A DNA stretch of 64,000 bases from an uncultured Lentisphaerota bacterium. GTDB taxonomy: Bacteria; Verrucomicrobiota; Kiritimatiellia; RFP12; UBA1067. Below, in pieces: positions 12,601 through 58,021 of this stretch (position 1 is its first letter; the number at the start of each line of letters is the position of its first letter). The notes below the pieces were generated by a model. It made no database searches. It was given only the letters and a program-made list of their open reading frames with translations, and was not told where the DNA came from. The position numbers and the translations under genes were made by a program. The stretch is taken from assembly GCA_900320225.1 (NCBI GenBank), contig ONRL01000001.1, positions 1,325 through 65,324 of the forward strand, read 5' to 3'.

Positions 12601-12628
12601 ATTGGTGCGACTGACTGGGATCGAACCA
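12601..12628. repeat. attL core: orphan 3' fragment of tRNA-Arg (28-bp exact direct repeat)
   Basis: ATTGGTGCGACTGACTGGGATCGAACCA is identical to 57943..57970. It corresponds to the CCA, acceptor and T-arm of the tRNA-Arg gene. Confidence 0.9.
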
Positions 12629-12732: not shown

Positions 12733-13026
12733 TTAGCGTGGATTCTTGACGAAGTAAAACAGACCGGCTATTGAGATTCCAACCCACGCGACTGCGAAGA
12801 CTTTTACAGCTAGCTTTGCGGACTTCGAGGCATCCTCATACCATGTCAGCCAGAGCGGACATGGGAAAGGAAAGAGCGCGGCGAAGTATGGCAAGGCGAT
12901 GATTATGCTCGACGGCATTGGGATCTTCTTGCACACCAGGACAACTAACCCGAGCACAAAGCTCCACAAAATGGCCAAAAGCCATAGTGGTAGAATAGTA
13001 TTGAGAGGGTCGTTGTCAGAACTCAT
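12733..13026 (-). CDS. small 3-TM membrane protein (moron-like, low GC)
   Basis: MSSDNDPLNTILPLWLLAILWSFVLGLVVLV... has three hydrophobic helices and visibly lower GC than the flanks. The start is set at ATG 13026, directly downstream of a TGGTATACT extended -10. Confidence 0.6.
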   Translation of the reverse strand: MSSDNDPLNTILPLWLLAILWSFVLGLVVLVCKKIPMPSSIIIALPYFAALFPFPCPLWLTWYEDASKSAKLAVKVFAVAWVGISIAGLFYFVKNPR

Positions 13027-13032
13027 GCGGAT

Positions 13033-13048
13033 AGTATACCACACCCCC
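13033..13048 (-). promoter_or_regulatory. leaderless extended -10 promoter (GGGGGTGTGGTATACT)
   Basis: The reverse complement of 13033..13048 is GGGGGTGTGGTATACT, and the -10 ends 6 nt before the ATG at 13026. It matches the block at 14098..14113 at 14 of 16 positions. Confidence 0.5.
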
Positions 13049-13083
13049 CTTCTAGGCGGATGAAAAAAAGTGGGAAAAAGTGC

Positions 13084-13112
13084 TTGAGGTGGTACACACC
13101 TTTTGATAGACT
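13084..13112 (+). promoter_or_regulatory. candidate early rightward promoter (TTGAGG -17 bp- TGaTAGACT)
   Basis: -35 TTGAGG is at 13084..13089, followed by a 17-bp spacer, TG at 13104..13105 and -10 TAGACT at 13107..13112. It lies about 45 nt upstream of the first + strand gene (13158). Confidence 0.45.
13086..13100 (+). promoter_or_regulatory. operator-like repeat copy 1 (GAGGTGGTACACACC) overlapping -35/spacer of the early promoter
   Basis: The same 15-16 bp sequence recurs at 13514..13529 and 13560..13575. It is an imperfect palindrome GGTG-GTAC-A-CACC. Confidence 0.5.
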
Positions 13113-13157
13113 ATGCGCCCGGAAGCACAAATCAGGTTTCCGCAACCCTAAGAAAGG

Positions 13158-13403
13158 ATGATTCAGATGGCCAATCAAGAGAACGGAGAAGTGAAGCAAC
13201 TCAAGCTTCGCATTCCCATGGAGCTATATGTTCAGCTCGAAATAGACGCTGCGGTTCACAACGAGCCGCCGGCCACTCGCGCACGCCATATTCTCGGCGA
13301 CCAGCTGATGAATGTGCCGTTGAGCGCTGCTGCCAAGGAGCGTGTCAAGGAACTCGTCGCACAGAACTGGGCGAAGATTCGTAAGGGGGAGGGCAACAAA
13401 TGA
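13158..13403 (+). CDS. small DNA-binding protein, ribbon-helix-helix-like
   Basis: 81 aa. KQLKLRIPMELYVQLEIDAAVHNEPPATRARHILGDQL fits a beta-strand/helix/helix RHH pattern. It is the first gene after the early promoter. Confidence 0.45.
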   Translation: MIQMANQENGEVKQLKLRIPMELYVQLEIDAAVHNEPPATRARHILGDQLMNVPLSAAAKERVKELVAQNWAKIRKGEGNK

Positions 13404-13585
13404 ATCGAGTAATCATCGTAGATGTCCCGGCGTGGATGCAGGATAAACTCGCCCAGATCGCAACAATCTGTGGCGAGAGCATCGACTATGTTGCCGCGTC
13501 TTTTTTTGCCGCAGAGGTGGTACACACCCAAGGCGCGGCAGCGGCTTCTTTTTGCCCGAGAGGTGGTACACACCCGAACGCCTAA
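13400..13585 (+). CDS. small protein, possible ribbon-helix-helix
   Basis: ATGA overlap with the previous gene. VIIVDVPAWMQDKLAQIATICGESIDYVAASFFAAE is RHH-like. Its 3' third is occupied by two operator-like repeats, so the true C-terminus is uncertain. Confidence 0.35.
   Translation: MNRVIIVDVPAWMQDKLAQIATICGESIDYVAASFFAAEVVHTQGAAAASFCPRGGTHPNA
13514..13529 (+). promoter_or_regulatory. operator-like repeat copy 2 (GAGGTGGTACACACCC)
   Basis: It is part of a ~28-bp unit TTTTTGCCGCAGAGGTGGTACACACCC that is repeated 46 bp downstream. Confidence 0.45.
13560..13575 (+). promoter_or_regulatory. operator-like repeat copy 3 (GAGGTGGTACACACCC)
   Basis: It is part of the unit TTTTTGCCCGAGAGGTGGTACACACCC. 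Confidence 0.45.
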
Positions 13586-13676
13586 CGAATGGAGGAAAAC
13601 GATGAGCTTTGAGACGGAAGACAGGTTAATGACGGCGGCGATGTTCATGTTGCTTGTCGGCGCTGCCATGGCGTTT

Positions 13677-14090
13677 CTAGGACTTGGCGTACTGGCGATC
13701 AGAGCCGCCTTCGGTGAATTCGGATCCGTCGGCAAGGCGGATGGACGCGAGGCCGTCGAATCCGCTGCCGCAGGAAAAGATCGCATGGCCGCCGGGCTGG
13801 ACGGTACGGACGGGAGCGGAATCGTCGGCCCCAGCAAGGAAATCCGGTTCAAAGGCACGTCCACCAACGCGCAACTCGATCACCGTGAAGGCGACGTGTC
13901 CGATGTTCGACACGACCACCTCGCGGTGGTAACTCCCTCGACTGATCCTGGTAGTTACGGACGCCTTCGGGATGTCCCGAAGCTCCTGCCGACGAATGGA
14001 ACGCCAGGAGAGGCAAGCCGCGATTACGGAGCCGAGGGCAGCAAGGGCTGTGCCGCCCGCCATGACCCATTGGACAAGAGAGTTTTCCAT
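13677..14090 (-). CDS. N-terminally anchored membrane protein with small beta-rich ectodomain (moron-like)
   Basis: MENSLVQWVMAGGTALAALGSVIAACLSW (TM) is followed by VVVSNIGHVAFTVIELRVGG...GGHAIFSC. The ATG at 14090 is 7 nt downstream of TGGTATAAT, within a block 14/16 identical to the promoter of the 12733..13026 gene. It competes with an antisense + ORF (13602..14123). Confidence 0.55.
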   Translation of the reverse strand: MENSLVQWVMAGGTALAALGSVIAACLSWRSIRRQELRDIPKASVTTRISRGSYHREVVVSNIGHVAFTVIELRVGGRAFEPDFLAGADDSAPVRTVQPGGHAIFSCGSGFDGLASIRLADGSEFTEGGSDRQYAKS

Positions 14091-14097
14091 GGCGGAG

Positions 14098-14113
14098 ATT
14101 ATACCACAACCCC
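14098..14113 (-). promoter_or_regulatory. leaderless extended -10 promoter (GGGGTTGTGGTATAAT)
   Basis: The reverse complement of 14098..14113 is GGGGTTGTGGTATAAT, and the -10 ends 7 nt before the ATG at 14090. Confidence 0.5.
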
Positions 14114-14139
14114 GAACGAATAGGAGGACGGTATACGGT

Positions 14140-14271
14140 ATGATGATTACGCAGAAGGAAATGAAGCGGGCGCTTGACCGGATGCAGCCGTGGAAGCTCA
14201 CCGACATGCGCAAGATGCCCAGTGGGCGGATCGTGCGGTTCGTCAACTGGAAGAAACTCGCGGGCAAGTAA
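14140..14271 (+). CDS. hypothetical small protein (43 aa)
   Basis: AGGAGG lies 12 nt upstream of the ATG at 14140, and there is a TAATG overlap with the next gene. The longer track ORF (13972..) would overlap the divergent promoter. Confidence 0.4.
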   Translation: MMITQKEMKRALDRMQPWKLTDMRKMPSGRIVRFVNWKKLAGK

Positions 14272-14672
14272 TGACGGCGAAGGAGATAAAGGAGGCGCTG
14301 GCCAGGGCAGCGCGCAAGGCATGGCCGAGAGTGGCCAAGGCCAGCGACCTCCCCTTCCCCGACTACTGGCGCAACAAGGTGGAATGGCTCACCTTCCATG
14401 CGCCGCACATCGGCGACAGGATGATGCGCGTGCTCATCGAGGATGCCGTGCGCGACGCCGTGCTCGCGGAGGCCGCAGGCAAGGAGCCCGTTTGTCCGCC
14501 GGTGCCCGCAAGCGTCAAGAAGATTTGGGAAAACCATGCCCTCGCTGGGCCGGCGAAGCCGGCGAGCCTGACCGATAGCTCAAATGTTGCCACTCGCGGT
14601 GACGGTGGGAGAGACCACGATTCAACAGCAAGCGTACGACAGCAAGTAATGGAACAAGGGAGGCTGCTGTGA
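14271..14672 (+). CDS. hypothetical protein
   Basis: 133 aa from MTAKEIKEALARAARKAW. It is translationally coupled on both sides. No family was recognised. Confidence 0.5.
   Translation: MTAKEIKEALARAARKAWPRVAKASDLPFPDYWRNKVEWLTFHAPHIGDRMMRVLIEDAVRDAVLAEAAGKEPVCPPVPASVKKIWENHALAGPAKPASLTDSSNVATRGDGGRDHDSTASVRQQVMEQGRLL
14625..14646 (+). repeat. 22-bp conserved motif copy 1 (ACAGCAAGCGTACGACAGCAAG)
   Basis: One of four near-identical copies, all on the + strand. Here it is read as T-A-S-V-R-Q-Q, 23 nt before the next gene start. Confidence 0.8.
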
Positions 14673-15046
14673 GCGAGGCGGCGAGCGAGATCTTCGGCGC
14701 GCGGGAAAGGCCCTACGACTACCGCTGGGGCACGCCCGTGCAGGTGAACGAGCAGTTCGGGATCAGCGCGGCGTCGCTCAAGGCCGCCTGGGCCCGTGGC
14801 TGGGTGCGCGCGCGTCAGGGCAACTGGGTGAGCGACGCGAAGCGCACGCAGACGATCTACTGCTTCGAGGACATCCACGGCTGGCTGGAGCGCGTCGCGC
14901 ACCGCGTGACGAAAGTCTACGCCGAGACGTTCTGGACGGACGAGACCGTGGCGGAGATGGCCGAGAAGACGCCCGACGGGCCGTACATGCGGCGGGCCAC
15001 GCTCGGTCGGAAAGACGGCTTCCCGAAACTTCCAAGGAAGGTATAG
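14669..15046 (+). CDS. helix-turn-helix DNA-binding protein (excisionase/AlpA-like pattern)
   Basis: 125 aa with a GTGA overlap start. VQVNEQFGISAASLKAAWARGWV...TIYCFEDIHGWLE resembles MerR-superfamily Xis/AlpA HTH domains. Confidence 0.4.
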   Translation: MSEAASEIFGARERPYDYRWGTPVQVNEQFGISAASLKAAWARGWVRARQGNWVSDAKRTQTIYCFEDIHGWLERVAHRVTKVYAETFWTDETVAEMAEKTPDGPYMRRATLGRKDGFPKLPRKV

Positions 15047-15048
15047 GC

Positions 15049-15249
15049 ATGAAACCACAGACACAGACAACAGAGATGACGATCCACATCAAGATCCCGG
15101 TCGGATGGTACGAGGGGCTGCGCAGGCTCGCCGACCAGGTCGAGGGCACGATCCACCAGCAGACGCGTCTCGCGATCCGCGAGCGCCTGGAGCGGACCGG
15201 CGCCGACTTTTTCGCCGGAAACGGCATGAACAACAAACTGGAGAACTAA
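15049..15249 (+). CDS. ribbon-helix-helix protein
   Basis: 66 aa. TIHIKIPVGWYEGLRRLADQVEGTIHQQTRLAIRERLE is a good strand-helix-helix pattern, and a GGAAGG RBS precedes it. Confidence 0.5.
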   Translation: MKPQTQTTEMTIHIKIPVGWYEGLRRLADQVEGTIHQQTRLAIRERLERTGADFFAGNGMNNKLEN

Positions 15250-15252
15250 ACA

Positions 15253-16371
15253 ATGAAAGCTACGATAGCAAGGAGCCTGCTCGCAGAAGCGGCCCAAGCA
15301 GTCAAGGGGCTCGTCGCGAAAGACGGGCTCAGCGCGTTCAGCAAGATCAGGCTGGACGTGAGCGGCGACGCGTCGGTGACGGGCTCGAACGGAGACATCC
15401 AGGTCGAATGGCGCATGGCCTGCGAGATCATCGACCGTGGGACGGTGACCGTGCCCGGCGCGGCGTTCGCGGCGTTCGTCGGCGCGATGCCGGAGGGCAA
15501 GGTCGAGATGGAATTGGCCAATCACAAATTGGCCATAGAAGGCAACGGAGTGAAGTTCAAGCTCGCGGCAGGCGAGGCGGCCGACTTCCCCGTGATGGCC
15601 GGTCCGAAGGAGGGCGCTAGGCTGGGTATCACCTCGACGCTCCTGTACGAGATGCTGCGAAAGGTGAAGTTCGCCGTCTCGGCGGACGATACGCGCAAGT
15701 CGCTCACGGGCGTGAACATCGCCTTTAAGGACGGGCTGCTCGGCATGACGGCGACGGACGGGCGGAGGCTCGCGCACGTGGAGAAGGATTTGGATGAGGA
15801 CGATGAGGCAGAGGCAGGCCGCCTCGGCTTCAACTTCACGCTTCCGATGAAGGCCGTGGGCACGCTGTACGGGCTACTGGAGAAGATGGCGGGGAGCGGC
15901 GACCTCGTGCAGATCGCATCGGACGGAAAGGCCGTGCGGTTCGTCGGCGACTTCTGGATCATGACGGCAAAGGTGATTGACGAGATTTATCCGAACTGGC
16001 GGAAGGTCGTGCCGGAGAAGCAACCGCACCAGGCGGAGCTGAAGCGCGCGGCGTTCCTCGCGGCGCTGGGCCGCGCGGCGCTCGCAAGCCAGGAGGTGAG
16101 CGGCGTGAAGATCACGCTGAAGAACACGAGCGCCGTGTTCGAGGCGAGGAACGAGATCACGGCGGCGAACGCGGGCACGGCGGCCTGCAAGATGGACGAG
16201 GGCGTGAAAGGCGAGTTCCGCGTGAACCCGCGCCTGATGAAGGACGCGCTGGAGTCGATCGACGAGGACGACTTCACGCTCCACTTCGACGACGGCAACG
16301 GGACGCCGATCAAGCTGACGTGCTCGCTGCCATGGGTGGCCGTGGTCATGCCATTCAGGAAGGAGGGCTGA
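15253..16371 (+). CDS. dnaN: DNA polymerase III beta sliding clamp (phage-encoded)
   Basis: 372 aa. LLAEAAQAVKGLVAKD..., LKFAVSADDTRKSLTGVNIAF and LGMTATDGRRLA are typical DnaN blocks, and the length is that of a three-domain clamp. Confidence 0.85.
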   Translation: MKATIARSLLAEAAQAVKGLVAKDGLSAFSKIRLDVSGDASVTGSNGDIQVEWRMACEIIDRGTVTVPGAAFAAFVGAMPEGKVEMELANHKLAIEGNGVKFKLAAGEAADFPVMAGPKEGARLGITSTLLYEMLRKVKFAVSADDTRKSLTGVNIAFKDGLLGMTATDGRRLAHVEKDLDEDDEAEAGRLGFNFTLPMKAVGTLYGLLEKMAGSGDLVQIASDGKAVRFVGDFWIMTAKVIDEIYPNWRKVVPEKQPHQAELKRAAFLAALGRAALASQEVSGVKITLKNTSAVFEARNEITAANAGTAACKMDEGVKGEFRVNPRLMKDALESIDEDDFTLHFDDGNGTPIKLTCSLPWVAVVMPFRKEG

Positions 16372-16374
16372 GGG

Positions 16375-17085
16375 ATGAGTGAAGAGGTACAGACGCCTGA
16401 CGAGGCCGAGGGCTTCTCGGAAAAGGAGAGGGCTGCGAACAGGCCCGGAACGGAAAAGCGCGACTGGGTGGAGGAGGCCTATCAGTGCTTCATTAAGGAC
16501 GCGCAGGGGATTGACCCGACGGATCCCGTGAAGGCAGTCGAGGCGTACTTTCAGAAGAACGCGACTGACGAGCTGAAGGCCAAATGCAAGGCCGAGGGCA
16601 AGGACGCCAAGGGATGCTGGAGGTTCATCGAGGCTGTGGCGCGGAAGGCGTTGCACGGATCGAGCGGCCACATCGACCCGGCCGTGGTGTATGCGATCGC
16701 CATGCACTGGTTCGAGGATGTGCCGGTGGACTGGAACATGCCGAAGGTATTGGGGAAGGCGTCCGAGCCGAAGAAGACAGCAAGCGTACAACAGCAAGAT
16801 TCTGGACCGAAGAAGAAGCCGAAGAAGCCGGCGGAGACGCCTTCCGAGAAGCGGAAGGAGAAGGAGCGTATGGCCAAGGCGAAGGCCAAGTCCAAGGCGA
16901 AGAAGCCGCGCGCGCAGCAGGGCTTCTTCTTCGAGATGCTTGAAATGCAACCGGGTGAACAAAAGCCATGTGGTTCACCCTCGCCCCAGGCGTCGGCGGG
17001 CGCGTCAGGGGAAGAGAATGCCGTGGCGCTCAGCGCACAGCCCGCTTCAACTTCTTCAACGGAAAGCGAGGTGCAGAATGGTTAA
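16375..17085 (+). CDS. PcfK-like protein (family that includes anti-CRISPR AcrIIA9)
   Basis: AYFQKNATDELKAKCKAEGKDAKGCWRFIEAVARKAL...IDPAVVYAIAMHWFEDVPV parallels the PcfK-like core (..DELFAK..EGK....C..YI.........D.E.Y..A.HYY.ED). It has a Lys/Glu-rich C-terminal tail and lies in the same block as a PcfJ-like gene, two genes downstream. Confidence 0.55.
   Translation: MSEEVQTPDEAEGFSEKERAANRPGTEKRDWVEEAYQCFIKDAQGIDPTDPVKAVEAYFQKNATDELKAKCKAEGKDAKGCWRFIEAVARKALHGSSGHIDPAVVYAIAMHWFEDVPVDWNMPKVLGKASEPKKTASVQQQDSGPKKKPKKPAETPSEKRKEKERMAKAKAKSKAKKPRAQQGFFFEMLEMQPGEQKPCGSPSPQASAGASGEENAVALSAQPASTSSTESEVQNG
16777..16798 (+). repeat. 22-bp conserved motif copy 2 (ACAGCAAGCGTACAACAGCAAG)
   Basis: It lies inside the PcfK-like gene and is read as T-A-S-V-Q-Q-Q. 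Confidence 0.8.
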
Positions 17086-17740
17086 GAAAAGTCTAGCAGA
17101 GATCCACGACTGGGCGATGGAATTCCTCAAGCGCGCGGAGTTGGGCACGGAGCAGATCGCGGCGCTCGACGCGATGGGCTACTTCAACAAGCCCGCGTCG
17201 CTGCGGCACCACCTGGCCCGCGCCGGCGGGCTCATGGAGCACAGCCTCAACGTGACCAACTGGATGGTCAACCTGAAGGACAGCTTCGGGTGCTGCATGC
17301 GGCCGAGGAGCCCGTACCTCATCGGGATGCTGCACGACATCTGCAAGTGCGCGTGCTACGAGTGGAACGAGTCGGCGCAGGCCTTCGAGTGGAAGGAGCC
17401 GCAGTACATGGGGCACGGCAGCGCGAGCGTGATCATGATCGCGACTGAGCTCGGGATCATCCTGGACCCGAACGAGGCAATGGCGATCCAATGGCACATG
17501 GGCGCGTTCGGTCTGGACAAGGCCGCGCTCGCGCGCTATGACGCGGCGCTGAAGGAATACCCTTCCGACATCCTGCTCACGCACACGGCCGACATGATGG
17601 CCTCCAAAGTGACCGAGGGGGGTGGGCATGAAAATATGCAACAAATGCAGGACGGCGCTCCTCAAAGGGAGGAAAATGGTCGATTGTCCACGACAAGGGC
17701 TCATTGGGGTGAAGAGCCGAGAATAACGGAAGAGAGGTGA
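17078..17740 (+). CDS. HD-domain phosphohydrolase
   Basis: From MVKKSLAEIHDW. LRHHLARAGGLMEHSLNV and IGMLHDICK provide the H...HD motif. There is an 8-nt overlap with the previous gene. The track ORF start (16691) is an out-of-gene extension. Confidence 0.7.
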   Translation: MVKKSLAEIHDWAMEFLKRAELGTEQIAALDAMGYFNKPASLRHHLARAGGLMEHSLNVTNWMVNLKDSFGCCMRPRSPYLIGMLHDICKCACYEWNESAQAFEWKEPQYMGHGSASVIMIATELGIILDPNEAMAIQWHMGAFGLDKAALARYDAALKEYPSDILLTHTADMMASKVTEGGGHENMQQMQDGAPQREENGRLSTTRAHWGEEPRITEER

Positions 17741-17743
17741 GCC

Positions 17744-18091
17744 ATGCTGAAGATTAAAAGAGGCGACTGCTCGGTACTTCATCTTGTGCTTAAGAAGAAG
17801 TGGTACGACATGATTGCGAGCGGCGAAAAACGCGAAGATTACAGGGCCGCGAAAAACTACTATCGGACGCGGATCGCAAACTTCATCAGACGCTACGCCG
17901 ACAAGGGTCTAAAGAAGCTTGTCGTCGCGTTTTCATGCGGAAGGAGAAAGGCCGACATTCACATGACTGTCATAGGGATAAACATCTACCCGGACAGTCT
18001 GCATCCCGAATGGGGAGAGCCGAAAGGCTACCACTATGTGATTGTACTCGGCAGACGCGTGGTCATGGTAGACGAAAGCGAGGTGGAATGA
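17744..18091 (+). CDS. ASCH (PUA-like) domain protein
   Basis: LHLVLKKKWYDMIASGEKREDYR matches the ASCH N-terminal signature common in phages. The patch is visibly lower in GC. Confidence 0.6.
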   Translation: MLKIKRGDCSVLHLVLKKKWYDMIASGEKREDYRAAKNYYRTRIANFIRRYADKGLKKLVVAFSCGRRKADIHMTVIGINIYPDSLHPEWGEPKGYHYVIVLGRRVVMVDESEVE

Positions 18092-19713
18092 TGAGCCTGA
18101 CACGGAAGCAGATGATGGAGATCGTCGCGTTCGACTGGAAACGGCGGACGGGGCTCGATTTCGACGGACGCCGGTATGGCAGCATCACCGGCGCGCACGC
18201 GCCGTACATCACCGAGACCTGGGGCCTGTGCCACGGATCGCATGTGTTCAAGGGCAAGAAGAATCCGCCCAGGAAGACGTTGCGATATAACTACATTGTG
18301 CCGGAGCGGGTAAACGGCAAGCGTACGACAGCAAGCGGGAAGCCGGTACGGCCGGACGTGACAGTCGTGCATGTGGCCGTGCGGCTTGACGGGAATTACC
18401 GGCCCGTCGTGAAGGACGTGTTTCGGTGGCACATCAAGACCAATTCGTGCGAGTTCCGGGACATCGACTACCACGGTCTCGGCGGGTGGATCGTGGAGTG
18501 GCAGCGCGAGGACTGGGCCGGGAAGAAGAAGGGCTGCAAGCGGTTGACGCCAAGGCTGGCGAGGTCTGTTGACGATGGATGGGGACACAACGGGATGAAG
18601 TGGAAGTTCAACATCGGGCTGACTTTTCCCTGGCACGAGACGGTGAACCCGGAGGCGCTAAAAGGCACGAAGTACGAGTGGTGTCAGTACAGCGACTCCA
18701 CGCCATGCAAGGCCGGACTTGTGGACTGGCTAATGATGTACCGCCAGGAGCCGAAGATCGAACTGCTGGCCAAGATGGGGCTCCACCGTCTCATCTGCCC
18801 GGCGGGGATCAAGGCGCTCCAGGACCGGCGCGTGCGCGACTGGATCCTGGCGCACCGCGAGGAGGCCGCGAAGCGGTACAAGGACGGCACGCCGCGCTAC
18901 GACATGGTGGACATCATCTACGCGGCACGGCACGGCGTGACGATCAACGCGGCCGAGAAGCGCCGGTGCTTCATCCAAGACGTGCGGCAACACCTGGACC
19001 TCTGGCCGAGCACGGAGAAGGTGCGGCTCGACTACGACCGGCTGATGAAGCTGTTCCGGAAGTGGAGGATCTCCGCTCCGGAGTATGGGCGCTACCTCAA
19101 GTACGCCCTACGCACGGGGCATGACCTCAAGAACGAGGGCACGCTCTATCCGCCGGTGCGCGGCGGGCGCGAGGCGTTCATGGTCCGGCTGGAGGCGCTC
19201 GAAGCGCTGTCCGCGAAGCTCGAGCGCGCCGAGCAACGCCGGCGCCGTAGGCAGGCGCGCATGGCCGAAGCCGAGCGGAAGGCCGCGATCGAGGCGGAGG
19301 AGAGGCGGATCGCCGAGATGATGAAGGCGAGAATGACCGAGCTCGAGGCGTTCCAGAAGTCGCTGAAGCGTTCGACCACGCTGAAAGGCTGCGGCTACGC
19401 GATCATCCTGGCAAAGTCCCAGGAGGAACTGCGGGTCGAAGGCAAGCGCATGGGAAACTGCGTGGGCATGGGCACGTACGGTCGCGCGATCGTGACGGGC
19501 GACGCGCTCATCATCATGCTCATGCGCGACGGGAAATCCTACTGCGACATCGAGATCGGGCGCAAGAAGTGGAACGTCCGCCAGTGCTACCTGGAGCGCA
19601 ACCAGCGCGCGCCCGAGGAGATCCACGAACTGGCGAAGCAGATCGCGGCCTGCCTCAAGGCGGAGTACCTGCGGTTCAAGAAGCGCAAGGCGCAGGAAAG
19701 GAAGGTCGCGTAA
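18088..19713 (+). CDS. PcfJ-like protein
   Basis: 541 aa from MMSLTRKQ (ATGA overlap). C-terminal EELRVEGKRMGNCVGMGTYGRAIVTGDALIIMLMRDGKSYCDIEI matches the PcfJ-like core (EG..M.(H/N)CV..Y......G...I...R). Confidence 0.6.
   Translation: MMSLTRKQMMEIVAFDWKRRTGLDFDGRRYGSITGAHAPYITETWGLCHGSHVFKGKKNPPRKTLRYNYIVPERVNGKRTTASGKPVRPDVTVVHVAVRLDGNYRPVVKDVFRWHIKTNSCEFRDIDYHGLGGWIVEWQREDWAGKKKGCKRLTPRLARSVDDGWGHNGMKWKFNIGLTFPWHETVNPEALKGTKYEWCQYSDSTPCKAGLVDWLMMYRQEPKIELLAKMGLHRLICPAGIKALQDRRVRDWILAHREEAAKRYKDGTPRYDMVDIIYAARHGVTINAAEKRRCFIQDVRQHLDLWPSTEKVRLDYDRLMKLFRKWRISAPEYGRYLKYALRTGHDLKNEGTLYPPVRGGREAFMVRLEALEALSAKLERAEQRRRRRQARMAEAERKAAIEAEERRIAEMMKARMTELEAFQKSLKRSTTLKGCGYAIILAKSQEELRVEGKRMGNCVGMGTYGRAIVTGDALIIMLMRDGKSYCDIEIGRKKWNVRQCYLERNQRAPEEIHELAKQIAACLKAEYLRFKKRKAQERKVA
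18314..18335 (+). repeat. 22-bp conserved motif copy 3 (ACGGCAAGCGTACGACAGCAAG)
   Basis: It lies inside the PcfJ-like gene and is read in a different frame, as N-G-K-R-T-T-A-S. Confidence 0.75.
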
Positions 19714-19902
19714 GTGGCACGGAGGCGAAAATGCGGGCATTGCCCGAAGAACGACTTCGGATGGTGTGCCATCCGGGCCGAATTGCGACCGCGCGACGCG
19801 CCTGCCTGCGACTACGGGCGAAAGCTGATGGACAACGCGTACATGGCAAAGTACATGCGCGAGCGACGCAAGGCGAGGAAGCGAGGGATGGAAGATGACT
19901 AA
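19714..19902 (+). CDS. small Cys-rich (zinc-binding-like) basic protein
   Basis: 62 aa with a GTG start directly after the previous stop. CGHCPKNDFGWC....C pattern with a basic tail. Confidence 0.4.
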   Translation: MARRRKCGHCPKNDFGWCAIRAELRPRDAPACDYGRKLMDNAYMAKYMRERRKARKRGMEDD

Positions 19903-20029
19903 GGTATTCCCGAGCGTGCTGATCGCGCTGGACGTGTGTGCTGCTGGCGTGTACGCGGCGCACGGCGACTGGCGCAGGTTCATTTACTGGATAGCCGCGG
20001 CGACGCTGACGGCCACGGTGACGTTCTAG
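19895..20029 (+). CDS. tiny hydrophobic protein (44 aa, below ORF-track cutoff)
   Basis: ATG 19895 overlaps the previous stop. MTKVFPSVLIALDVCAAGVYAAHGDWRRFIYWIAAATLTATVTF forms two TM-like segments. Confidence 0.35.
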   Translation: MTKVFPSVLIALDVCAAGVYAAHGDWRRFIYWIAAATLTATVTF

Positions 20030-20045
20030 GAGAAAGGAGCGCGGC

Positions 20046-20240
20046 ATGGAAGAGAAGGTATGGTGGACCGTCAAGACGGACTGTGGCACGCGCCGCACGC
20101 TCGCCGTGAGCGCGCGCAAGGCCGAGCGCAACGTGCGCTATCGGCTCGTCATGGACGACCGCTCATACGACCGACCACGGCCGCGCGACTTCGCCGAGAT
20201 GCGCGACATCGAGGTGATGGAGGTGGTGAAGGATGATTGA
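20046..20240 (+). CDS. hypothetical protein
   Basis: 64 aa with RBS AGGAGAAAGGAG. It overlaps the primase start by 8 nt. Confidence 0.45.
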   Translation: MEEKVWWTVKTDCGTRRTLAVSARKAERNVRYRLVMDDRSYDRPRPRDFAEMRDIEVMEVVKDD

Positions 20241-23085
20241 CGAGGCGGATTTCCTGGCCAAGTTCGAGGGCGTGCAGAAGTCTGGCGGCGGGTGGGTTGC
20301 CCGGTGCCCAGCGCACGAGGACAAGAACGCGTCGCTCTCGATCGGCAAGGGCGACGACGGGCGCTGGCTCGTACACTGCCACGCCGGGTGCAGCGCGGAG
20401 GCCGTCGTGTCGGCCCTGGGGCTCAAGCTGCGCGACCTCATGCCCGACAAGCCGGAGCACCGGACGGCGAAGAGCCGCTTCGGCACCTGGGTGTGCGACT
20501 ACGAATACCAGGACGAGGCCGGGAAGGTGCTCTACAAGAGCTGCCGGTACGTCAAGGACGACGGCAAGAAGACGTTCGTGATCAAGACGCCCGATCCGAG
20601 CTCGCCGTTCGGGTGGAGCTACGGACTCTCCAAGAAGAAGATCGCGCGCGTGCCGTTCCGGCTTCCGAGGGTAATCTCCGCCGCGAAGGCCGGCAAGACC
20701 ATCGTGATCGTCGAGGGCGAGAAGGACGTGCTGACGGTCGAGCAGACGGTCGGCTGCGCGGCGACCTGCAACGTCGCGGGCGCCGGCAAGTGGGGCTACA
20801 TGTTCCCGGAGGGATGGGGCAGGTGGTTCGAGGGCGCGCCCGGGATCATCGTCGTCGCGGACAACGACAAGAGCCTCGTCGGCCAGAAGCACGCGTGGGA
20901 CGTCCGGCGCCAACTGCTCGAGCAGGGCTACAAGGGCCGGACCAAGCTGATGGTCATGCCGGCCGTCGGCGAGGAGCGGCCGAAGGACTACACCGACTGG
21001 GTGGAGGCGCGCAAGGCCGCCGGGCTCCCGGCCGACAAGGCCGCGTTCATGGAAGCGGTGAAGAGCGCCGAGCCCTGGCCGAAGGAATGGGAGTTCGACG
21101 GCACATCCACGGATGTTGCGCGCGCTGAAAAAAGCGCGCGCGAAGCCTTATCAGATTCCGCAGACGAGGACCGCCGGCCGGACCGTTTCGGCGGTCCGGC
21201 TCCCCGCGCCCCTGGTGAAGAGCGTAAAACGTGGACGGTGGATTTTGACATCGGAGGCGGACGGTTCGCGCGTCTCGAGCTCGAGTACGGCTGGACGGTC
21301 GAGCAGGTTTTGACCTACAGCGTGACGGCCGTGAGCAAGAAATGCCCGAACAACGAGCTTCCGCGCGGCGTCTACGCCCGGCTGAAGGCATGGAGCGCGG
21401 CGCTTTGGCTCCTGATGCGCGGCAGTTTCTTCTGGCACAGCGACTACCGGGACTTCGGGACGTGCATGTTCCTCGACCGCGATCCGGACAGCTGCACGCT
21501 CATGCGGATCATGAGCGACGAGTTCTACGCCTTCGTGGCCCGGCACGCGCGCATGGAGGACGTTGATCCGAAGAAAGGCGACCTCGGCAAGGTGCTCGGG
21601 CTCGTCAAACAGATCGCGGTCAGCAGCGACTACGCGCAGGGCGTGAGGCCCGGCAACAGCTGGGAGCGTCGCGGCGACGCGGTGTACATCTCCAACGGCG
21701 ACACGGAGATGTGCAGAGTCAAGGACGGCAAATGCGAGATGGTGCAGAACGGCACAGACGGCGTAGTCTTCCTCCGAGGCAAGACCCTTGCGCCCTGGCA
21801 ACTCCGCGACGGCGCCGGCAAGGATCCGTTCGCGACGGCCAAGATCTTCACCGGCGCGAGCTTCGCGGACGCGAACGGGCTCATGAACGTGCGTCTCTGG
21901 ACGATGAACCTCCTCGCGTGCCACGCGACGAAACCTCCCCTTCTCATCACAGGCGGCGCCGGATCCGGCAAGACGCGCATGGCCAAGGGCATAAAAGAGA
22001 TCCTCGGCATGCGCCAGGACGGCGCGCTCGATCTCTCCGTGCAGCAGATCGAGGACGGCGACAAAGGGCTCGATGCGTTCTGGGCGACGGTCAACGACGG
22101 CAAGCTGGAAGTTTTTGATAACTTCGACACGAAGGTCAAATGGGCCAGCGACACGCTCCAGACGGCGGCCACGGACGGCCAGACGAAGCGCAGGACGCTC
22201 TACACGACGTTCGGCGTCTCGATCCTGCGGGCGAACGCGCACATCATCTTGACGTCGAACAACCCGATATTTTCCACGGAGGGCAACGGCGGCCTCGCCG
22301 ACCGGCTCATCACGATCCCGCTCACGCTGAACCGCAACGTGAGCCAGGACGCCGAGCTCTCGGCCGAGATCGCCGCGAACCGCGACGAATACCTCACCTG
22401 GATCGCGCGCACACTCGCGAAGGCGCTGCTCGACAAGGCGCCGGTGGACAAGTCGATCAACCGGCGGCATCCGGACTACGGCGAGTTCTCCGTGCGCGTC
22501 GGCCGCGCCATCGGCGACGAGGAGGGCGTCGTCAAGGCCCTGGGCGCTGCGGAGGCCGACAAGGCCATTCTCCCGCTGATGAACGACGCCGTGACGAAGG
22601 AGATCATGGGCGTGCTGTCCGATAAGGACTACGAATGGAGCGGGACGGCCGGCGAGATGTCCGGGCTCATCATCGCCAAGCAGGGCGACGACGAGGACGA
22701 GAAGACGAAGAGCATCTACTCTTCTCGGCGCGTCGGCAAGGCATTCAACAAGTACATGCGCCAGTTTTCGCTCATTTTCCGCATGGACGAGCCGAAATTG
22801 TACGAGGGCCGAAGCCTCTACACATTCCGCGGCATGACCGCTCTCGGTCAGATGTCGGTGGGTTTGGTGGATTCTAAACCCACTTTCGCCAAAACCCGTG
22901 AGAGCGCGCACGCGCACGGGTTTGTGGAAAACAACCCTTTTAATCCACCTAACCCACCAGACGAGGAAACCACGGGCGCAGGGGGCGCGGGCGTTAGCAC
23001 GCGCGCGCGCGGACCCCGCTCCCCTTTAGGCGTGGAAGAAGAAGAAGGAGGAAATGGAGATGAGGATTTATACTGGGATTTGTGA
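20233..23085 (+). CDS. bifunctional DNA primase / P-loop helicase (zinc finger + TOPRIM + D5/VirE-like NTPase)
   Basis: CPAHEDKNASLSI...HCHAGC is a primase zinc finger. IVIVEGEKDVLT and VVADNDKSLVGQKHA are TOPRIM motifs. LLITGGAGSGKTRMAKG is a Walker A motif in the C-terminal half. Confidence 0.85.
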   Translation: MIDEADFLAKFEGVQKSGGGWVARCPAHEDKNASLSIGKGDDGRWLVHCHAGCSAEAVVSALGLKLRDLMPDKPEHRTAKSRFGTWVCDYEYQDEAGKVLYKSCRYVKDDGKKTFVIKTPDPSSPFGWSYGLSKKKIARVPFRLPRVISAAKAGKTIVIVEGEKDVLTVEQTVGCAATCNVAGAGKWGYMFPEGWGRWFEGAPGIIVVADNDKSLVGQKHAWDVRRQLLEQGYKGRTKLMVMPAVGEERPKDYTDWVEARKAAGLPADKAAFMEAVKSAEPWPKEWEFDGTSTDVARAEKSAREALSDSADEDRRPDRFGGPAPRAPGEERKTWTVDFDIGGGRFARLELEYGWTVEQVLTYSVTAVSKKCPNNELPRGVYARLKAWSAALWLLMRGSFFWHSDYRDFGTCMFLDRDPDSCTLMRIMSDEFYAFVARHARMEDVDPKKGDLGKVLGLVKQIAVSSDYAQGVRPGNSWERRGDAVYISNGDTEMCRVKDGKCEMVQNGTDGVVFLRGKTLAPWQLRDGAGKDPFATAKIFTGASFADANGLMNVRLWTMNLLACHATKPPLLITGGAGSGKTRMAKGIKEILGMRQDGALDLSVQQIEDGDKGLDAFWATVNDGKLEVFDNFDTKVKWASDTLQTAATDGQTKRRTLYTTFGVSILRANAHIILTSNNPIFSTEGNGGLADRLITIPLTLNRNVSQDAELSAEIAANRDEYLTWIARTLAKALLDKAPVDKSINRRHPDYGEFSVRVGRAIGDEEGVVKALGAAEADKAILPLMNDAVTKEIMGVLSDKDYEWSGTAGEMSGLIIAKQGDDEDEKTKSIYSSRRVGKAFNKYMRQFSLIFRMDEPKLYEGRSLYTFRGMTALGQMSVGLVDSKPTFAKTRESAHAHGFVENNPFNPPNPPDEETTGAGGAGVSTRARGPRSPLGVEEEEGGNGDEDLYWDL

Positions 23086-23154
23086 GGCCGAGATTGCGCA
23101 GCCGAATGACCGCCGTTCAAATGGGGTGTTTTCGGGAGTAAACGGGAGGTGCCC

Positions 23155-23697
23155 GTGAGGCGTCTCGGTTTGACACTGATGGAGGAGCGGTTCTGTGCGC
23201 TGATGGCCCACGGAAAGACCGCGCGCGAAGCCTATTCCGAGGCATTCAGCGTCGCGCTCGTCGATTCCCGCCGCGAGCATTCGGTGGATAACCGGGCGAG
23301 CCGTCTCCAGAAGCGCGCCGACATCATCAGCCGGATCGCGGAGCTGGCAGGGGAAGCGAAACGCAAGAACCGCGAAATGTGGGAGAGGCGCGGAGAAGAC
23401 CTGGCCGAACGCCTCTACACGCGCGTGCTCGAGGCCGACGGCGCCGGGCTCCTGCTGTCCAAGGGCGCGCTCAAGGGCCTCGAGGTGCTGGCCAAGATGA
23501 AGGGATTGAACGCGCCCGAGGAGACCGTGCTAAAGGACGGCGGCCGATCCGACGACTTCGTGCCGCGCGGCATCGAGGGCATGAGCGAAGAGGATTTGCG
23601 CGCAATCATCGACCAGGAGAAGCGGACGATCGAGGCGGATGTGGTCGAGGCTGGAGAGGACAGCAAGCGTACTACAGCAAGTGAGGAGGAGGGATGA
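23155..23697 (+). CDS. terS: terminase small subunit
   Basis: LTLMEERFCALMAHGKTAREAYSEAF...NRASRLQKRADIISRIAEL is a classic Terminase_2 N-terminal HTH pattern. The start is placed at GTG 23155 (GGGAGG 5 nt upstream); the track start 23149 is also possible. Confidence 0.8.
   Translation: MRRLGLTLMEERFCALMAHGKTAREAYSEAFSVALVDSRREHSVDNRASRLQKRADIISRIAELAGEAKRKNREMWERRGEDLAERLYTRVLEADGAGLLLSKGALKGLEVLAKMKGLNAPEETVLKDGGRSDDFVPRGIEGMSEEDLRAIIDQEKRTIEADVVEAGEDSKRTTASEEEG
23660..23681 (+). repeat. 22-bp conserved motif copy 4 (ACAGCAAGCGTACTACAGCAAG)
   Basis: It lies at the 3' end of terS, 13 nt before the terL ATG, and is read as D-S-K-R-T-T-A-S. Confidence 0.8.
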
Positions 23698-25256
23698 TCG
23701 GGGCGAGGGAAGCACAGATCGAGCTCCTGCGCAGGGCCGCGCAGGTGAACCTGCTGGCGTTCCTCCAGTATTGCTGGTGGATGCCTGGGCCGCTACACAT
23801 CGGACGGCACACGCGCGAACTGTGCGCGCGTCTGACGCAGGCCGTGGTGGACTTCCGCGCGGGCAAGGACACCTACCTCATCGTGAACATGCCCTTCCGG
23901 CACGGCAAGAGCGACCTGGTCTCGCGCGCGTTGCCGGCATACTTCCTCGGGCGCTGTCGAGACATGCAGCCGAACGTCATCATGAGCGGCTACGGATCCT
24001 CGCTCGTCAAGGGCTTCTCGTCCAACGTGCAGGCGATCGTCGAGGGCGAGGCGTACGCCAAGCTGTTTCCGGGCATGCGGATCGACCCGGACAAGAACGC
24101 GACCGACGAATGGCGCATCAAGGACTCGGTCTCGAGCGTGTACGCGCAGGGTCTCGGCGGATCCATCACCGGCAAGGGCGGCAACCTCATCATCGTCGAC
24201 GATTATTGCAAGAACGCGGAGGAGGCCGAGAGCCAGGCCGTTCGTGACAAGGTGTGGGAGTCGTTTAAGACGGACATCTGCACGCGCACGAACGCGCCAG
24301 CGCACATCATCATCGTGTGCGCCACGCGCTGGCACGTAGACGATCTGGTGGGCCGCATCTACGCGGAGATGGGCAACAATCCCGACTATCCGCGTTACGA
24401 ATCCCTCGTCTATCCCGCGCACAAGAGCGGTCCAGGGGGATGGGACACGCTCTTCCCCGAGCACTACAAGGCGTCCTGGTACGCCATGCAACGGTCGCAG
24501 CTGGGGCCGTATCAGGCGGCCGCCCTTCTCGACTGCGATCCGCGCCGCGCCGGCACGACGGTGTTCAAGCGCGAGTGGCTCGAGTACTACACGGGCGAGA
24601 TCGACTGGCGGCAGATGCGGATCGTGATCCTCGTGGACGGCGCGAAGTCGAAGAAGCAGGGCAGCGACTACACCTGCATCCAGGTATGGGGCAAGAACCG
24701 CGACGGGCGCAACTACCTGCTCGACGGCGTGCACGCGCGGCTCAACCTGGCGGAGAAGATCCAGGAGCTGTTCCGCCTCGTCGAGCGGTTCGGAGGCCCG
24801 CGCAAGGTGGACTGCGTCTGGTGGGAGCAGGTCGGGCCGATGAGCGACGTGGAGGCGCTGCGCATGGAGATGGACCGCAGGCTCTACCACTTCACCGTGC
24901 GCGAACTGCGCCACACCACGAACAAGGACTTCCGCATCATGCGGCTCGTCGTGCCGTTCGCCAAGCGCGAGATCGTGCTGCCGCTAAAGCTGATCCGCTC
25001 GCGCGTGGTGGATATCGGTGACGGAACGCCGCCAGATGTCAAGTCGTACGACCTCACGCAGGAACTGGTCGAGGACGAACTCCTGCTGTACACGGGCGAC
25101 CAGTCATCCATCCCTCATGACGACATGATTGACTGCATGGCCGACCTCACGGACGAGGAGGTCCTGCGTGACTTCACGCCGCCGGAGGGAGGCGCGCCGA
25201 TCCGCGACGACCGTGGCTCAAGGCGCGAGGCGAGCGGCCGTCTTTTCGCGCGCTGA
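23694..25256 (+). CDS. terL: terminase large subunit
   Basis: LIVNMPFRHGKSDLVS is Walker A-like, NLIIVDDYCK is Walker B, and IIIVCATRWHVDDLVGRI follows. The C-terminal nuclease half has DGA..... and D..D acidic residues. Confidence 0.88.
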   Translation: MIGAREAQIELLRRAAQVNLLAFLQYCWWMPGPLHIGRHTRELCARLTQAVVDFRAGKDTYLIVNMPFRHGKSDLVSRALPAYFLGRCRDMQPNVIMSGYGSSLVKGFSSNVQAIVEGEAYAKLFPGMRIDPDKNATDEWRIKDSVSSVYAQGLGGSITGKGGNLIIVDDYCKNAEEAESQAVRDKVWESFKTDICTRTNAPAHIIIVCATRWHVDDLVGRIYAEMGNNPDYPRYESLVYPAHKSGPGGWDTLFPEHYKASWYAMQRSQLGPYQAAALLDCDPRRAGTTVFKREWLEYYTGEIDWRQMRIVILVDGAKSKKQGSDYTCIQVWGKNRDGRNYLLDGVHARLNLAEKIQELFRLVERFGGPRKVDCVWWEQVGPMSDVEALRMEMDRRLYHFTVRELRHTTNKDFRIMRLVVPFAKREIVLPLKLIRSRVVDIGDGTPPDVKSYDLTQELVEDELLLYTGDQSSIPHDDMIDCMADLTDEEVLRDFTPPEGGAPIRDDRGSRREASGRLFAR

Positions 25257-25431
25257 CGAAAACCCTGTCAAGCGCAAAAAACGCGATTTTAAATTTTTTT
25301 TGACCCCTCTGTTTCGTTCATTGCGTTCGTTTCGCGTTTTTAATCTTTTTCTTAGACGGTGGAAACAAATATTTTTCGTGCGCGGGTGTATTATGTTCGC
25401 GCACAAAGGACAACCATCGAAGGAGCCGAAA
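25257..25431 (+). promoter_or_regulatory. AT-rich intergenic island ahead of the head genes (candidate late promoter/regulatory region)
   Basis: This is the largest non-coding gap in the late region and is strikingly AT-rich. It contains TTGACC (25300..25305) and TATTAT (25389..25394) but no canonically spaced pair. Confidence 0.35.
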
Positions 25432-25692
25432 ATGGGACACAAATCTGGCAGTTCTAAGGTCAAGCCGGTCAAGTCGCAGCAGACCGTCCAGCGGGCGGCC
25501 GCGTCCAGCGCGCCCATGGCGCCGACGGTGCAGACTCCGCAGACCGAGGTGGTCACGCCCGCCGTCATGCGCGACATCAGCGTGGACACGCAGACCGCTC
25601 AGCAGAACCAGCAGCTCGCGCGCAGCCGCCTCACGGGCATCCGCTCGACGTGGTCGTCGTTCGGAGGTCGTGCGTCCAAGCTCGGATCGTAA
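25432..25692 (+). CDS. small hypothetical virion-module protein
   Basis: 86 aa from MGHKSGSSKVKPVKSQQ, with RBS GAAGGAG 6 nt upstream. It lies just upstream of the portal gene. Confidence 0.45.
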   Translation: MGHKSGSSKVKPVKSQQTVQRAAASSAPMAPTVQTPQTEVVTPAVMRDISVDTQTAQQNQQLARSRLTGIRSTWSSFGGRASKLGS

Positions 25693-45169: not shown

Positions 45170-45171
45170 CG

Positions 45172-56709: not shown

Positions 56710-57817
56710 ACTCCAGTGCCTGACGGATCTCCTCCGTCTTGTCGGCGTGGTCATATCGCTGCACGGTCGCGTCCTGCGTCCATCCGCCGAGCCGCTTTGC
56801 GAGGTCGTTGCTCACGCCGGCCTCGGCCAGGCGTGTCCTGAAGGTATGCCGCCAGCTGTGGAAGGTGATCGTCGGATCGTCCACGCCGGCCGCCTTCAGG
56901 ATCGCGGCGAAGGTACAGTCTTCCGGATCGCCGGGATAGACTTTCGCAAACTCCGGAAGCACATACTTCCGGCCCTTCACGAACAGACCCTTCAGCGCGT
57001 CGCGCAGCACGGCCACCATCGGAACCTCGACCTCGATGTTGTAGCCCTGAGTCTTGATCGGCTTCACGCGGATCACGCCCCTCTCGAAGTCTACTTTGCT
57101 CCATTCCAGGAACACGACGTCATGCTTCCGGAGCCCGGTCCACCGTGCGACGAGACACGCCTCATACCAATGCGGCACGGCGCTCGCCTTCGCGGCCGCC
57201 AGCACGGCCTTCTCCTGGGCGCGCGTAAACGCGGCGTGACGCTGGCCGTCGCGCACGGTCGGCCGGAGGTCCTTCCACGGATTGCGGACGCCATACAGGG
57301 CCTCGGCGGCCTTCCAGATCGTGGATAGATTCCCGATGTATTCTTTCCGGCTTTTGTCCTTCAGCTTCGCCTTGTGCTTTTTGTCCTTCGGCGAGCTCTT
57401 CTTCTTCAGGTGCTCGGCATACGCCATCGCACACTCGAACGTCACCTCCTCCACGGTCGTGACCGGGAACTCGGTTTTCGTCCACTCGATGAAATCCTCG
57501 AGGTTCTTCTTCCGCTGCTTCACGAGCCGTTCGCCCGGCTTGCGATCGCGCATCGACATGAACCGCTCATACGTCGCCCACAGCTGAGCGATCGGCAGCC
57601 CGGCTCCCTCGCGCTCCCTGGTGAAGACGGCGTCGAGAATGGATTTCAATTTCATCTCGGATATCTTGCCCTTAATCGACAGGTGCATGGACTCCTCGAT
57701 CGACCGCGCATCCTTAATGGAAGTTGTGCCGGTAGACTGGCGGATGAATTTCCCTGGTCTTTTGGGGTCACGGAATGAAACCCACCAGTATTTAGAACCG
57801 TTATTTTTGTATAGCAT
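56696..57817 (-). CDS. int: tyrosine-type site-specific integrase
   Basis: 373 aa. ARWTGLR (Arg), HSWRHTF (H-x-x-R) and QRYDH (Tyr) are in the right order and spacing. It is adjacent to attR/tRNA, and its 3' end overlaps the giant gene by 14 nt (convergent). Confidence 0.9.
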   Translation of the reverse strand: MLYKNNGSKYWWVSFRDPKRPGKFIRQSTGTTSIKDARSIEESMHLSIKGKISEMKLKSILDAVFTREREGAGLPIAQLWATYERFMSMRDRKPGERLVKQRKKNLEDFIEWTKTEFPVTTVEEVTFECAMAYAEHLKKKSSPKDKKHKAKLKDKSRKEYIGNLSTIWKAAEALYGVRNPWKDLRPTVRDGQRHAAFTRAQEKAVLAAAKASAVPHWYEACLVARWTGLRKHDVVFLEWSKVDFERGVIRVKPIKTQGYNIEVEVPMVAVLRDALKGLFVKGRKYVLPEFAKVYPGDPEDCTFAAILKAAGVDDPTITFHSWRHTFRTRLAEAGVSNDLAKRLGGWTQDATVQRYDHADKTEEIRQALESTSA

Positions 57818-57942: not shown

Positions 57943-57970
57943 ATTGGTGCGACTGACTGGGATCGAACCA
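57943..57970. repeat. attR core (within intact tRNA-Arg)
   Basis: It is identical over 28 bp to 12601..12628. Confidence 0.9.
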
Positions 57971-58021
57971 GCAACCTTCGGCTTCGGAGGCCAACGCTCT
58001 ATCCAGTTGAGCTACAGTCGC
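57945..58021 (-). tRNA. tRNA-Arg (anticodon CCG), CCA encoded
   Basis: The reverse complement GCGACTGTAGCTCAACTGGATAGAGCGTTGGCCTCCGAAGCCGAAGGTTGCTGGTTCGATCCCAGTCAGTCGCACCA gives a 77-nt cloverleaf. It has acceptor GCGACTG/CAGTCGC, anticodon loop CTCCGAA (CCG) and T-arm GCTGG-TTCGATC-CCAGT. Confidence 0.92.

Follow-up and report, generated by a model that had tools for sequence, protein, structure and literature searches.

The closest described systems to the one considered here are REPtrons, in which a TnpA_REP gene is flanked by its repetitive extragenic palindromes, or REPs (PMC3116915, PMC5581495, PMC6006769). Insertion of REPs inside the gene of the REP-associated tyrosine transposase (RAYT) itself has a precedent in subclass 2.8 (PMC6006769). 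We analyzed a window of 64,000 nt, by which we mean the whole stretch from positions 1,325 to 65,324 of contig ONRL01000001.1 (assembly GCA_900320225.1, forward strand), from an uncultured Lentisphaerota bacterium of the class Kiritimatiellia. The window contains a prophage in which a 22-nt motif occurs four times. As in systems of a RAYT and its REPs or REP doublets forming hairpins (REPINs), this motif is a short repeat of high identity present in tens to hundreds of copies (PMC3116915, PMC5581495, PMC6006769). The four 22-mers are probably copies of a short interspersed repeat of the host lineage, REP/RAYT-like in kind, and not regulatory sites of the phage. The repeat family appears to be the cognate repeat of a protein of about 360 amino acids that joins a Y1-HUH domain to a DprA-like domain.

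The ACRGCAAGCGTACNACAGCAAG pattern has exactly four matches in the window, all on the forward strand, even when up to three mismatches are allowed. At the same tolerance, 100 dinucleotide-preserving shuffles of the window contained no match. Copy 1 (ACAGCAAGCGTACGACAGCAAG, 14625..14646, +) forms part of the last codons of the open reading frame (ORF) 14190-14672, where it is read as TASVRQQ (STASVRQQV), and its end is 23 nt from a GTG start at 14669. Copy 2 (ACAGCAAGCGTACAACAGCAAG, 16777..16798, +) is read as TASVQQQ (KKTASVQQQDSG) in a low-complexity linker of ORF 16375-17085 that is rich in Lys, Pro and Glu. Copy 3 (ACGGCAAGCGTACGACAGCAAG, 18314..18335, +) is read as GKRTTAS (VNGKRTTASGKP) in a variable loop of a PcfJ-like protein (ORF 18088-19713). 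Copy 4 (ACAGCAAGCGTACTACAGCAAG, 23660..23681, +) is read as DSKRTTAS (EDSKRTTASEEEG*) in the C-terminal tail of a terS-like protein (ORF 23149-23697), with 13 nt between the end of the copy and the terL ATG at 23694. All four prophage copies occupy change-tolerant places, namely tails, a linker and a loop. An alignment of the four sites with 80 nt on each side showed that the likeness stops at the motif borders and that the flanks are unrelated. An earlier reading made from the letters of this DNA (the sequence-only reading) had reported the same four copies; our pattern scan and ORF translations confirmed their count, coordinates, strand and two reading frames, and the distances of copies 1 and 4 to the next gene starts are as claimed. 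The same scan gave no copy in the host flank, which makes up 18.5 kb of the window.

The 22-mer is composed of two tandem 14-nt sub-units, (RnR)ACAGCAAG-CGTACR-ACAGCAAG, because the sequence logo adds R at -3 and R at -1, mirroring the A-C-R before the second octamer. Among 465 octamers we counted 181 pairs exactly 14 nt apart. This spacing bears out the proposal of the sequence-only reading that the motif is a direct octamer repeat with a 14-nt period. The pairs were joined by the spacers CGTACA (119), CGTACG (44) and CGTACT (6), and never by CGTACC. When N is A or G, the 22-mer is free of stop codons in all six frames. In the window the octamer ACAGCAAG occurs ten times, always on the forward strand; three solitary octamers (28308, 31863 and 52745) have no CGTAC context and are plain xAC-AGC-AAG codons. 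The octamer on its own as a Chi-like or FtsK-orienting (KOPS-like) unit was rejected, as most octamers stand in a 14-nt doublet and the solitary ones in the window are ordinary codons. A literature search for the sequence string of the motif found no papers.

We found exact copies of the motif on 5 contigs in a scan of IMG/VR and in at least 116 8-kb tiles in a scan of one genome per GTDB species, the tiles coming from 25 species representatives among the matches listed. Nearly all motif-bearing genomes are rumen or gut metagenome-assembled genomes (MAGs) labelled Kiritimatiellae, Lentisphaerae or Verrucomicrobia. The four richest hold at least 27-36 exact copies each, numbers that are lower bounds. 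Of the loci fetched for comparison (numbered with an L), those chosen via the motif are ascertainment-biased towards exact copies. In 941 kb of fetched DNA we counted 271 instances with up to three mismatches: 130 sense in coding sequences (CDS), 14 antisense in CDS and 127 intergenic, an approximate split given that genes were called with a home-made codon-usage model trained on the loci, which may read through short intergenic regions. The sense instances use all three frames (68, 29 and 33). Tiles with a relationship to the window phage or to a Mu-like prophage account for about 14% of the instances and unrelated tiles for about 86%, the latter including sites in glycoside hydrolase genes and in genes of giant surface proteins. 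These proportions rule out a prophage-only distribution. A phage-specific motif, as the sequence-only reading had envisaged, gives way to a generic repeat of host-lineage chromosomes in both orientations.

Conservation of the motif exceeds that of its surroundings. In orthologous membrane-protein genes from five MAGs the flanks have diverged, while the motif is 21-22/22 identical. In-frame copies lie inside conserved enzyme domains, as in FRVDITDAVK[TASVQQQDGRACRPATA]VLDLEIRVTNLWPNRLIGD (L012). A repeat conserved at the protein level was rejected, as three sense frames and the antisense strand are used. In orthologous genes of several MAGs (L064, L079, L081 and L086), antisense copies encode LLLYACC, which forms the hydrophobic core of the signal peptides predicted at the N-terminus. 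We also observed motif-dense Mu-like prophages, recognized by a DDE transposase with a MuB-like ATPase and by a head module (L115, L084, L121, L094, L024 and L054). The early region in L115 (CAMKJU010000003.1 24001-32000) has at least 8 copies in about 4 kb, and copies also stand directly upstream of major head genes in these prophages. In RGIG6720, with three tiles among the matches listed, copies occur both at a RAYT-like gene and in a Mu-like prophage.

Comparison with related phages showed turnover of the copies. Three loci (L001, L122 and L126, where L122 equals L001) represent one close relative of the window phage with 80-94% nucleotide identity. In this relative only the 3' 15 nt of the motif are left of copy 1 (GCGTTCGACAGCAAG, L001), copy 2 is identical (L001), copy 3 is kept (L001 and L126), and copy 4 is represented by one degenerate unit, 15 nt shorter than in the window (L122). 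The window is longer than this relative by 15 nt at copy 1 (in frame) and at copy 4, and this excess reads as one 14-nt unit with a putative compensating 1-nt indel. The proteins of L124 are about 60% identical to those of the window phage. There, copy 3 is missing and the PcfJ-like protein, 59% identical, has a different, longer loop; the orthologue of copy 2 (ACCGCAAGCGGAAAACAGCAAG) is degenerate, and a 1-nt shift makes it read QAENSK. This change of frame supports the claim that conservation acts at the level of the nucleic acid and not of the protein. The terS tail is hypervariable among relatives, without the motif in L123 and L125 and with unrelated sequence in L124. The notion that related phages conserve the motif is contradicted, as the surrounding genes are kept and the motif is not (L001, L123, L124 and L125).

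The repeat occurs in five contexts: singlets, tandem arrays, a stop-motif-Shine-Dalgarno-ATG layout, forward/inverted pairs, and fusions to GTAG-tagged palindromes. In tandem arrays the spacings are mostly multiples of three, and L099 shows 14-nt ladders. A CRISPR array was rejected for this reason and because the 66-bp spacing in L035 and L057 is that of an in-frame coding repeat of 22 amino acids. The layout with the Shine-Dalgarno sequence is recurrent, with the motif 10-14 nt before the start, and window copies 1 and 4 are placed alike. The fold of a single unit (-2.1 kcal/mol, z = -0.95) is no more stable than that of shuffled sequence; strong folding is seen in forward/inverted pairs (z = -5.8 and -8.2). 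We found 34 distinct pairs of this kind with gaps of 1-45 nt. The inverted partner is usually a ACAACAAG variant, so that one strand pairs with G.T/G.U wobbles and the other has A.C mismatches. In 23 pairs the strand that folded better was the sense strand with respect to the nearest gene, and in 7 it was the complement.

The GTAG-tagged palindromes form a second repeat class. They are GC-rich, resemble canonical REPs (e.g. GGTAGGGCGGTCGCCCCGCGACCGCC) and are often fused to the 22-mer, as seen in L012 (7438-7510), L018 (6183-6255), L102 (1140-1300) and L013 (4070-4160). Some fusions are 51-nt modules placed in frame within enzyme genes, while others are long hairpins with the 22-mer in the loop.

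A link between the repeat and a nuclease gene is evident in L099, where motif arrays lie around and within an ORF with the sequences MPDHFHGIVYI and INYVLSNAKRR. Five motif-selected loci, each from a different genome, contain the gene (L099, L110, L072, L028 and L058, the last with only the C-terminal half beside a masked stretch); two of these genomes are represented by that single tile among the matches listed. An inverted copy, forming an 'inverted copy + CACCCC' element, stands 7 nt before the ATG of the gene in L099 and L072, the loci that include its 5' end. The inter-domain linker carries a forward-then-inverted hairpin in L099, L072 and L028 and an inverted copy in L058, and arrays follow at the 3' end in L099 and L028. 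To counter the motif-based selection of these loci, we fetched contigs through the protein alone (L127, L128 and L129). Three perfect 22-mers immediately precede the gene in L128, where the protein has 47% identity. Dialect copies, made of ACAACAAG units with different spacers, occur in L127 and L129 ahead of the gene, in its linker and at its stop codon. The five motif-selected and the three protein-fetched loci all carry the motif or a dialect before, inside and/or after the gene. The gene is embedded in motif copies, which is a REPtron-like layout.

A database search found 32 homologues of the encoded protein, the complete ones with about 320-360 amino acids. They share a conserved N-terminal domain, a variable linker full of motif-derived peptides and a conserved C-terminal domain. 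We assigned the two domains on the basis of NCBIfam, structure prediction combined with Foldseek and a broader sequence profile. The N-terminal domain is predicted to be a homologue of Y1-HUH nucleases acting on single-stranded DNA, closest to RAYT, and the C-terminal domain is modeled with a DprA-like fold. The sole NCBIfam match is NF047646 (REP-associated tyrosine transposase), which covers almost the full length. In a panel of 36 members (33 full-length phmmer relatives with P0026, P0028 and P0014), NF047646 matches 35 at E<=1e-3 (best 5.5e-17) and the Pfam family Y1_Tnp matches 8. The invariant columns are the two HUH histidines (PDHFHG) and Y...N..R (Y..xN(P/A)(R/K)R). P0026 and P0028 have HUH and 'Y-L-x-D-N-P' signatures in agreement with those tabulated for class 2 (TnpA_REP) (PMC6006769). 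Pfam gave nothing on the RAYT-like protein or on its C-terminal half alone, and a PDB profile search with only 10 close homologues gave nothing useful; the broader profile reaches ISDra2/IS200-family transposases in the PDB by sequence.

The AlphaFold2 model has a predicted local distance difference test (pLDDT) score of 84-95 in the C-terminal domain and 60-75 in the N-terminal domain. With Foldseek, the C-terminal domain matched DprA (probability 1.0, E ~1e-4) and the N-terminal domain matched ISDra2, IS608 and IS200 TnpA as well as the E. coli RAYT structure 4ER8. The top Foldseek match was ShosA, a protein of the Shosta anti-phage system. An exhaustive phmmer search at E<=1e-3 recovered 3,751 representatives (50%-identity clusters) with the two-domain architecture, which is therefore widespread. 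In the literature searched we found no name or description of an HUH and DprA-like architecture, and 'DprA' has 0 occurrences in the paper that classifies TnpA-Y1 proteins (PMC6006769).

The repeat and its gene share further properties with REP/REPIN-RAYT systems. Hairpins arise from inverted doublets and have a strand-specific structure, related species share conserved copies, and the Y1-HUH gene flanked by clusters has the RAYT model as its best and only family match. Bacterial interspersed mosaic elements (BIMEs), the REP mosaics of enterobacteria (PMC2817692), are comparable in that the 22-mer is often fused to GTAG-tagged palindromes in fixed arrangements, such as palindrome, 22-mer and inverted palindrome (L102 and L013) or 22-mer and palindrome (the 51-nt module of L012 and L018). 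Unlike BIMEs, these mosaics also occur within coding sequences, and the 22-mer is much more often alone. The Rickettsia palindromic elements (RPEs) and other intragenic miniature inverted-repeat transposable elements resemble the repeat in their selfish in-frame insertion into unrelated ORFs at tolerated positions (PMC10969869). However, RPEs are palindromic with terminal inverted repeats, about 100-150 bp long and encode one conserved peptide each (PMC10969869), whereas the repeat studied here has 22 nt, uses three sense frames and the antisense strand, and is linked to a Y1-HUH gene. We conclude that it works like a REP/RAYT system, and we do not file it as a canonical member given that it is non-palindromic, lacks a GTAG tag, is often intragenic and belongs to a nuclease of different architecture.

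The copies in the prophage are most likely passengers that result from passive colonization of permissive sites with rapid gain and loss. We infer that the enzyme recognizes hairpins on single-stranded DNA and that cutting and rejoining of these hairpins spreads or homogenizes copies. Replication slippage between the direct octamers could gain or lose 14-nt units. Selection would then retain copies only where they are harmless, such as gaps between a stop codon and a ribosome-binding site, C-terminal tails, disordered linkers and surface loops. The prophage may have gained its copies while resident in such hosts or via recombination with other prophages, and the copies would be neutral for the phage.

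Several observations weigh against a REP/RAYT-like origin or set the system apart from described ones. The unit is a direct octamer repeat and not a stem-loop palindrome of its own, and no GTAG/CGTC tag of classical REPs stands at its foot; the GTAG palindromes are a separate, sometimes adjacent module. About three quarters of the copies are singlets, unable to form the hairpin that a Y1 enzyme needs, and inverted doublets are the minority. About half of the copies lie inside genes (144/271 instances overlap a CDS called with the home-made caller), in conflict with an extragenic location. The nuclease carries a C-terminal DprA-like domain, its host clade belongs to the Planctomycetes-Verrucomicrobia-Chlamydiae (PVC) superphylum, and the Kiritimatiellae proteins score 16-38 bits with NF047646, far below the curated cutoff of 80. 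The window itself has no Y1-HUH gene, so that its presence in this host is an assumption. Finally, the density in prophages looks higher, with 4 copies per 45 kb here and the cluster in L115 described above compared to 0 in the 18.5 kb of host flank. Because copies look denser in prophages than in the chromosome, a benefit to phages is conceivable. The apparent excess in prophages leaves some room for a distinct domesticated system for processing single-stranded DNA, beyond a REP/RAYT pair, formed by the HUH and DprA-like protein with its 22-nt tag. The DprA-like domain would load on single-stranded DNA during replication or transformation or on phage intermediates, and the HUH domain would nick at the tag or write it. 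The tag could then serve throughout the lineage as a signal for recombination or of 'self', with preferential accumulation in coding DNA and resident prophages, the latter being targets or vehicles instead of accidental bystanders. We regard such a system as unlikely, if worth keeping in mind.

A cis element acting at the RNA level on the transcribed strand, with a secondary association to the HUH gene, is an unlikely alternative. Paired copies would then be 3' stem-loops that stabilize or terminate mRNA, and single copies would modulate translation ahead of the ribosome-binding site or bind an RNA-binding protein. The strong sense bias in CDS (130 vs 14) and the weaker one in intergenic DNA (42 vs 21 unpaired copies) are what such an element predicts. 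The stop-motif-Shine-Dalgarno-ATG layout, seen in L084, L094, L054, L020, L076, L082 and L019, and the better hairpins on the sense strand, brought about by G.U-compatible ACAACAAG variants, point in the same direction. However, copies on the antisense or opposite strand exist and are equally well conserved, and the sense bias is explicable by peptide tolerance (TASVQQQ, SKRTTA and QQAYNSK vs LLLYACC and CCCTLAV). A Y1 enzyme that reads one DNA strand predicts strand-specific hairpins equally well. Functional binding sites are normally degenerate and not 22/22 identical, Rfam gave no family match at gathering thresholds, and no terminator-like site was called overlapping any of the four window copies.

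The DprA-like domain of the partner protein recalls transformation, and the repeat might be a 'self' tag comparable to a DNA uptake sequence (DUS) or to Chi, a tag that this domain would read on single-stranded DNA when cells transform or recombine and that biased uptake or recombination would keep highly identical, like the DUS of Neisseria or the uptake signal sequence (USS) of Haemophilus. The uptake sequences of Neisseriaceae and Pasteurellaceae are motifs at the DNA level that a whole clade shares; they stand in either orientation, within genes in more than one frame and behind genes as inverted pairs. The repeat is likewise found in both orientations, intragenically in several frames at permissive positions and in inverted pairs after genes, and among the matches listed it is conserved over 25 species with divergent flanks (L006, L038, L049, L116 and L119). 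Its density is far under the approximately one copy per kb of DUS and USS, as shown by the empty host flank and by the tens of exact copies, a lower bound, in the richest genomes. Known uptake sequences are 9-12 nt long, not 22 nt. Copies come and go as indels (15 nt, 51 nt) and whole arrays instead of by point substitution, they form tandem arrays, and the arrays cluster around the HUH nuclease gene, which is the signature of REP and RAYT. We therefore consider a self tag improbable.

Least credible of all is a control element of the phage itself, namely one of the roles listed by the sequence-only reading: an operator for ribbon-helix-helix (RHH) proteins, a middle or late promoter, an antiterminator, or a pac or replication site. 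In isolation the four copies, all on the coding strand within 9 kb from the early/replication region to terS and two of them just upstream of gene starts, look like the stoperators of cluster A mycobacteriophages or the start-associated sequences of cluster K, and other prophages of the clade are motif-rich as well (L115 and L084). Stoperators and start-associated sequences are one-stranded, asymmetric motifs near gene boundaries that are phage-specific and conserved, whereas this motif is neither phage-specific nor conserved among relatives. The closest relative lacks copies 1 and 4 or has them at half size, copy 3 is missing in L124, the terS-terL junction of L123, L124 and L125 is without the motif, and the large majority of instances lie in tiles unrelated to these phages. 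Regulation through a sigma-70 promoter or an intrinsic terminator was rejected, as no sigma-70-like site was called in 13000-25500 and no terminator at the copies. Of the three RHH proteins that had been proposed, Pfam gave no match for 13158-13403 or 15049-15249, and they could not be confirmed. A control signal of the early/replication region is contradicted by the chromosomal spread and by the loss in relatives. From the same reading, a nicking target may prove close to the truth, the associated protein being an HUH nuclease homologue; the roles named above found no support. A host-lineage repeat that resembles REPs thus keeps our preference.

The prophage that carries the four copies is about 45.3 kb long and is bounded by a 28-bp direct repeat, ATTGGTGCGACTGACTGGGATCGAACCA (12601-12628 and 57943-57970), which equals the 3' end of a tRNA-Arg(CCG) gene (57945-58021, -). 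An integrase-sized ORF (56696-57817, -) adjoins the tRNA gene. On the forward strand the prophage encodes a DnaN-like sliding clamp with three Pfam domains (15253-16371), the PcfJ-like protein that holds copy 3 (identified by Pfam), a Toprim/AAA primase-helicase-like protein (20233-23085), a weak HD-domain protein and the terS-like protein, followed by a terL-like gene from the ATG at 23694 and by morphogenesis genes. The prophage thus carries its own DNA polymerase III beta clamp together with a PcfJ-like protein, a family named after a protein of conjugative plasmids. A tape-measure-sized ORF of 1,550 amino acids (37076-41728) precedes an ORF of 3,847 amino acids (45166-56709, +) with a strong coding score in the tail/host-recognition part, which is unusually large for a siphovirus-like prophage. 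INPHARED contained no cultured phage similar to the region. The host flanks hold a giant ORF of more than 1,900 amino acids that leaves the window (58160-63889, -) and a secreted protein of 903 amino acids (9723-12434, -). Both fit the PVC-type host indicated by the distribution of the motif.

For phage annotation, these results are a caution that a one-stranded, perfectly conserved motif near gene starts in a prophage may be a host repeat that has invaded it and no regulatory signal; this comes to light only when host genomes and sister phages are compared. For repeat biology, they provide a lead: an uncultured PVC lineage has a REP-like family at odds with three textbook rules for REPs, which are to be palindromic, extragenic and GTAG-tagged. 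With this system one could test directly how short repeats are spread by Y1-HUH enzymes, how in-frame repeat peptides are tolerated by proteins, and whether prophages act as preferred sinks or carriers of such repeats.

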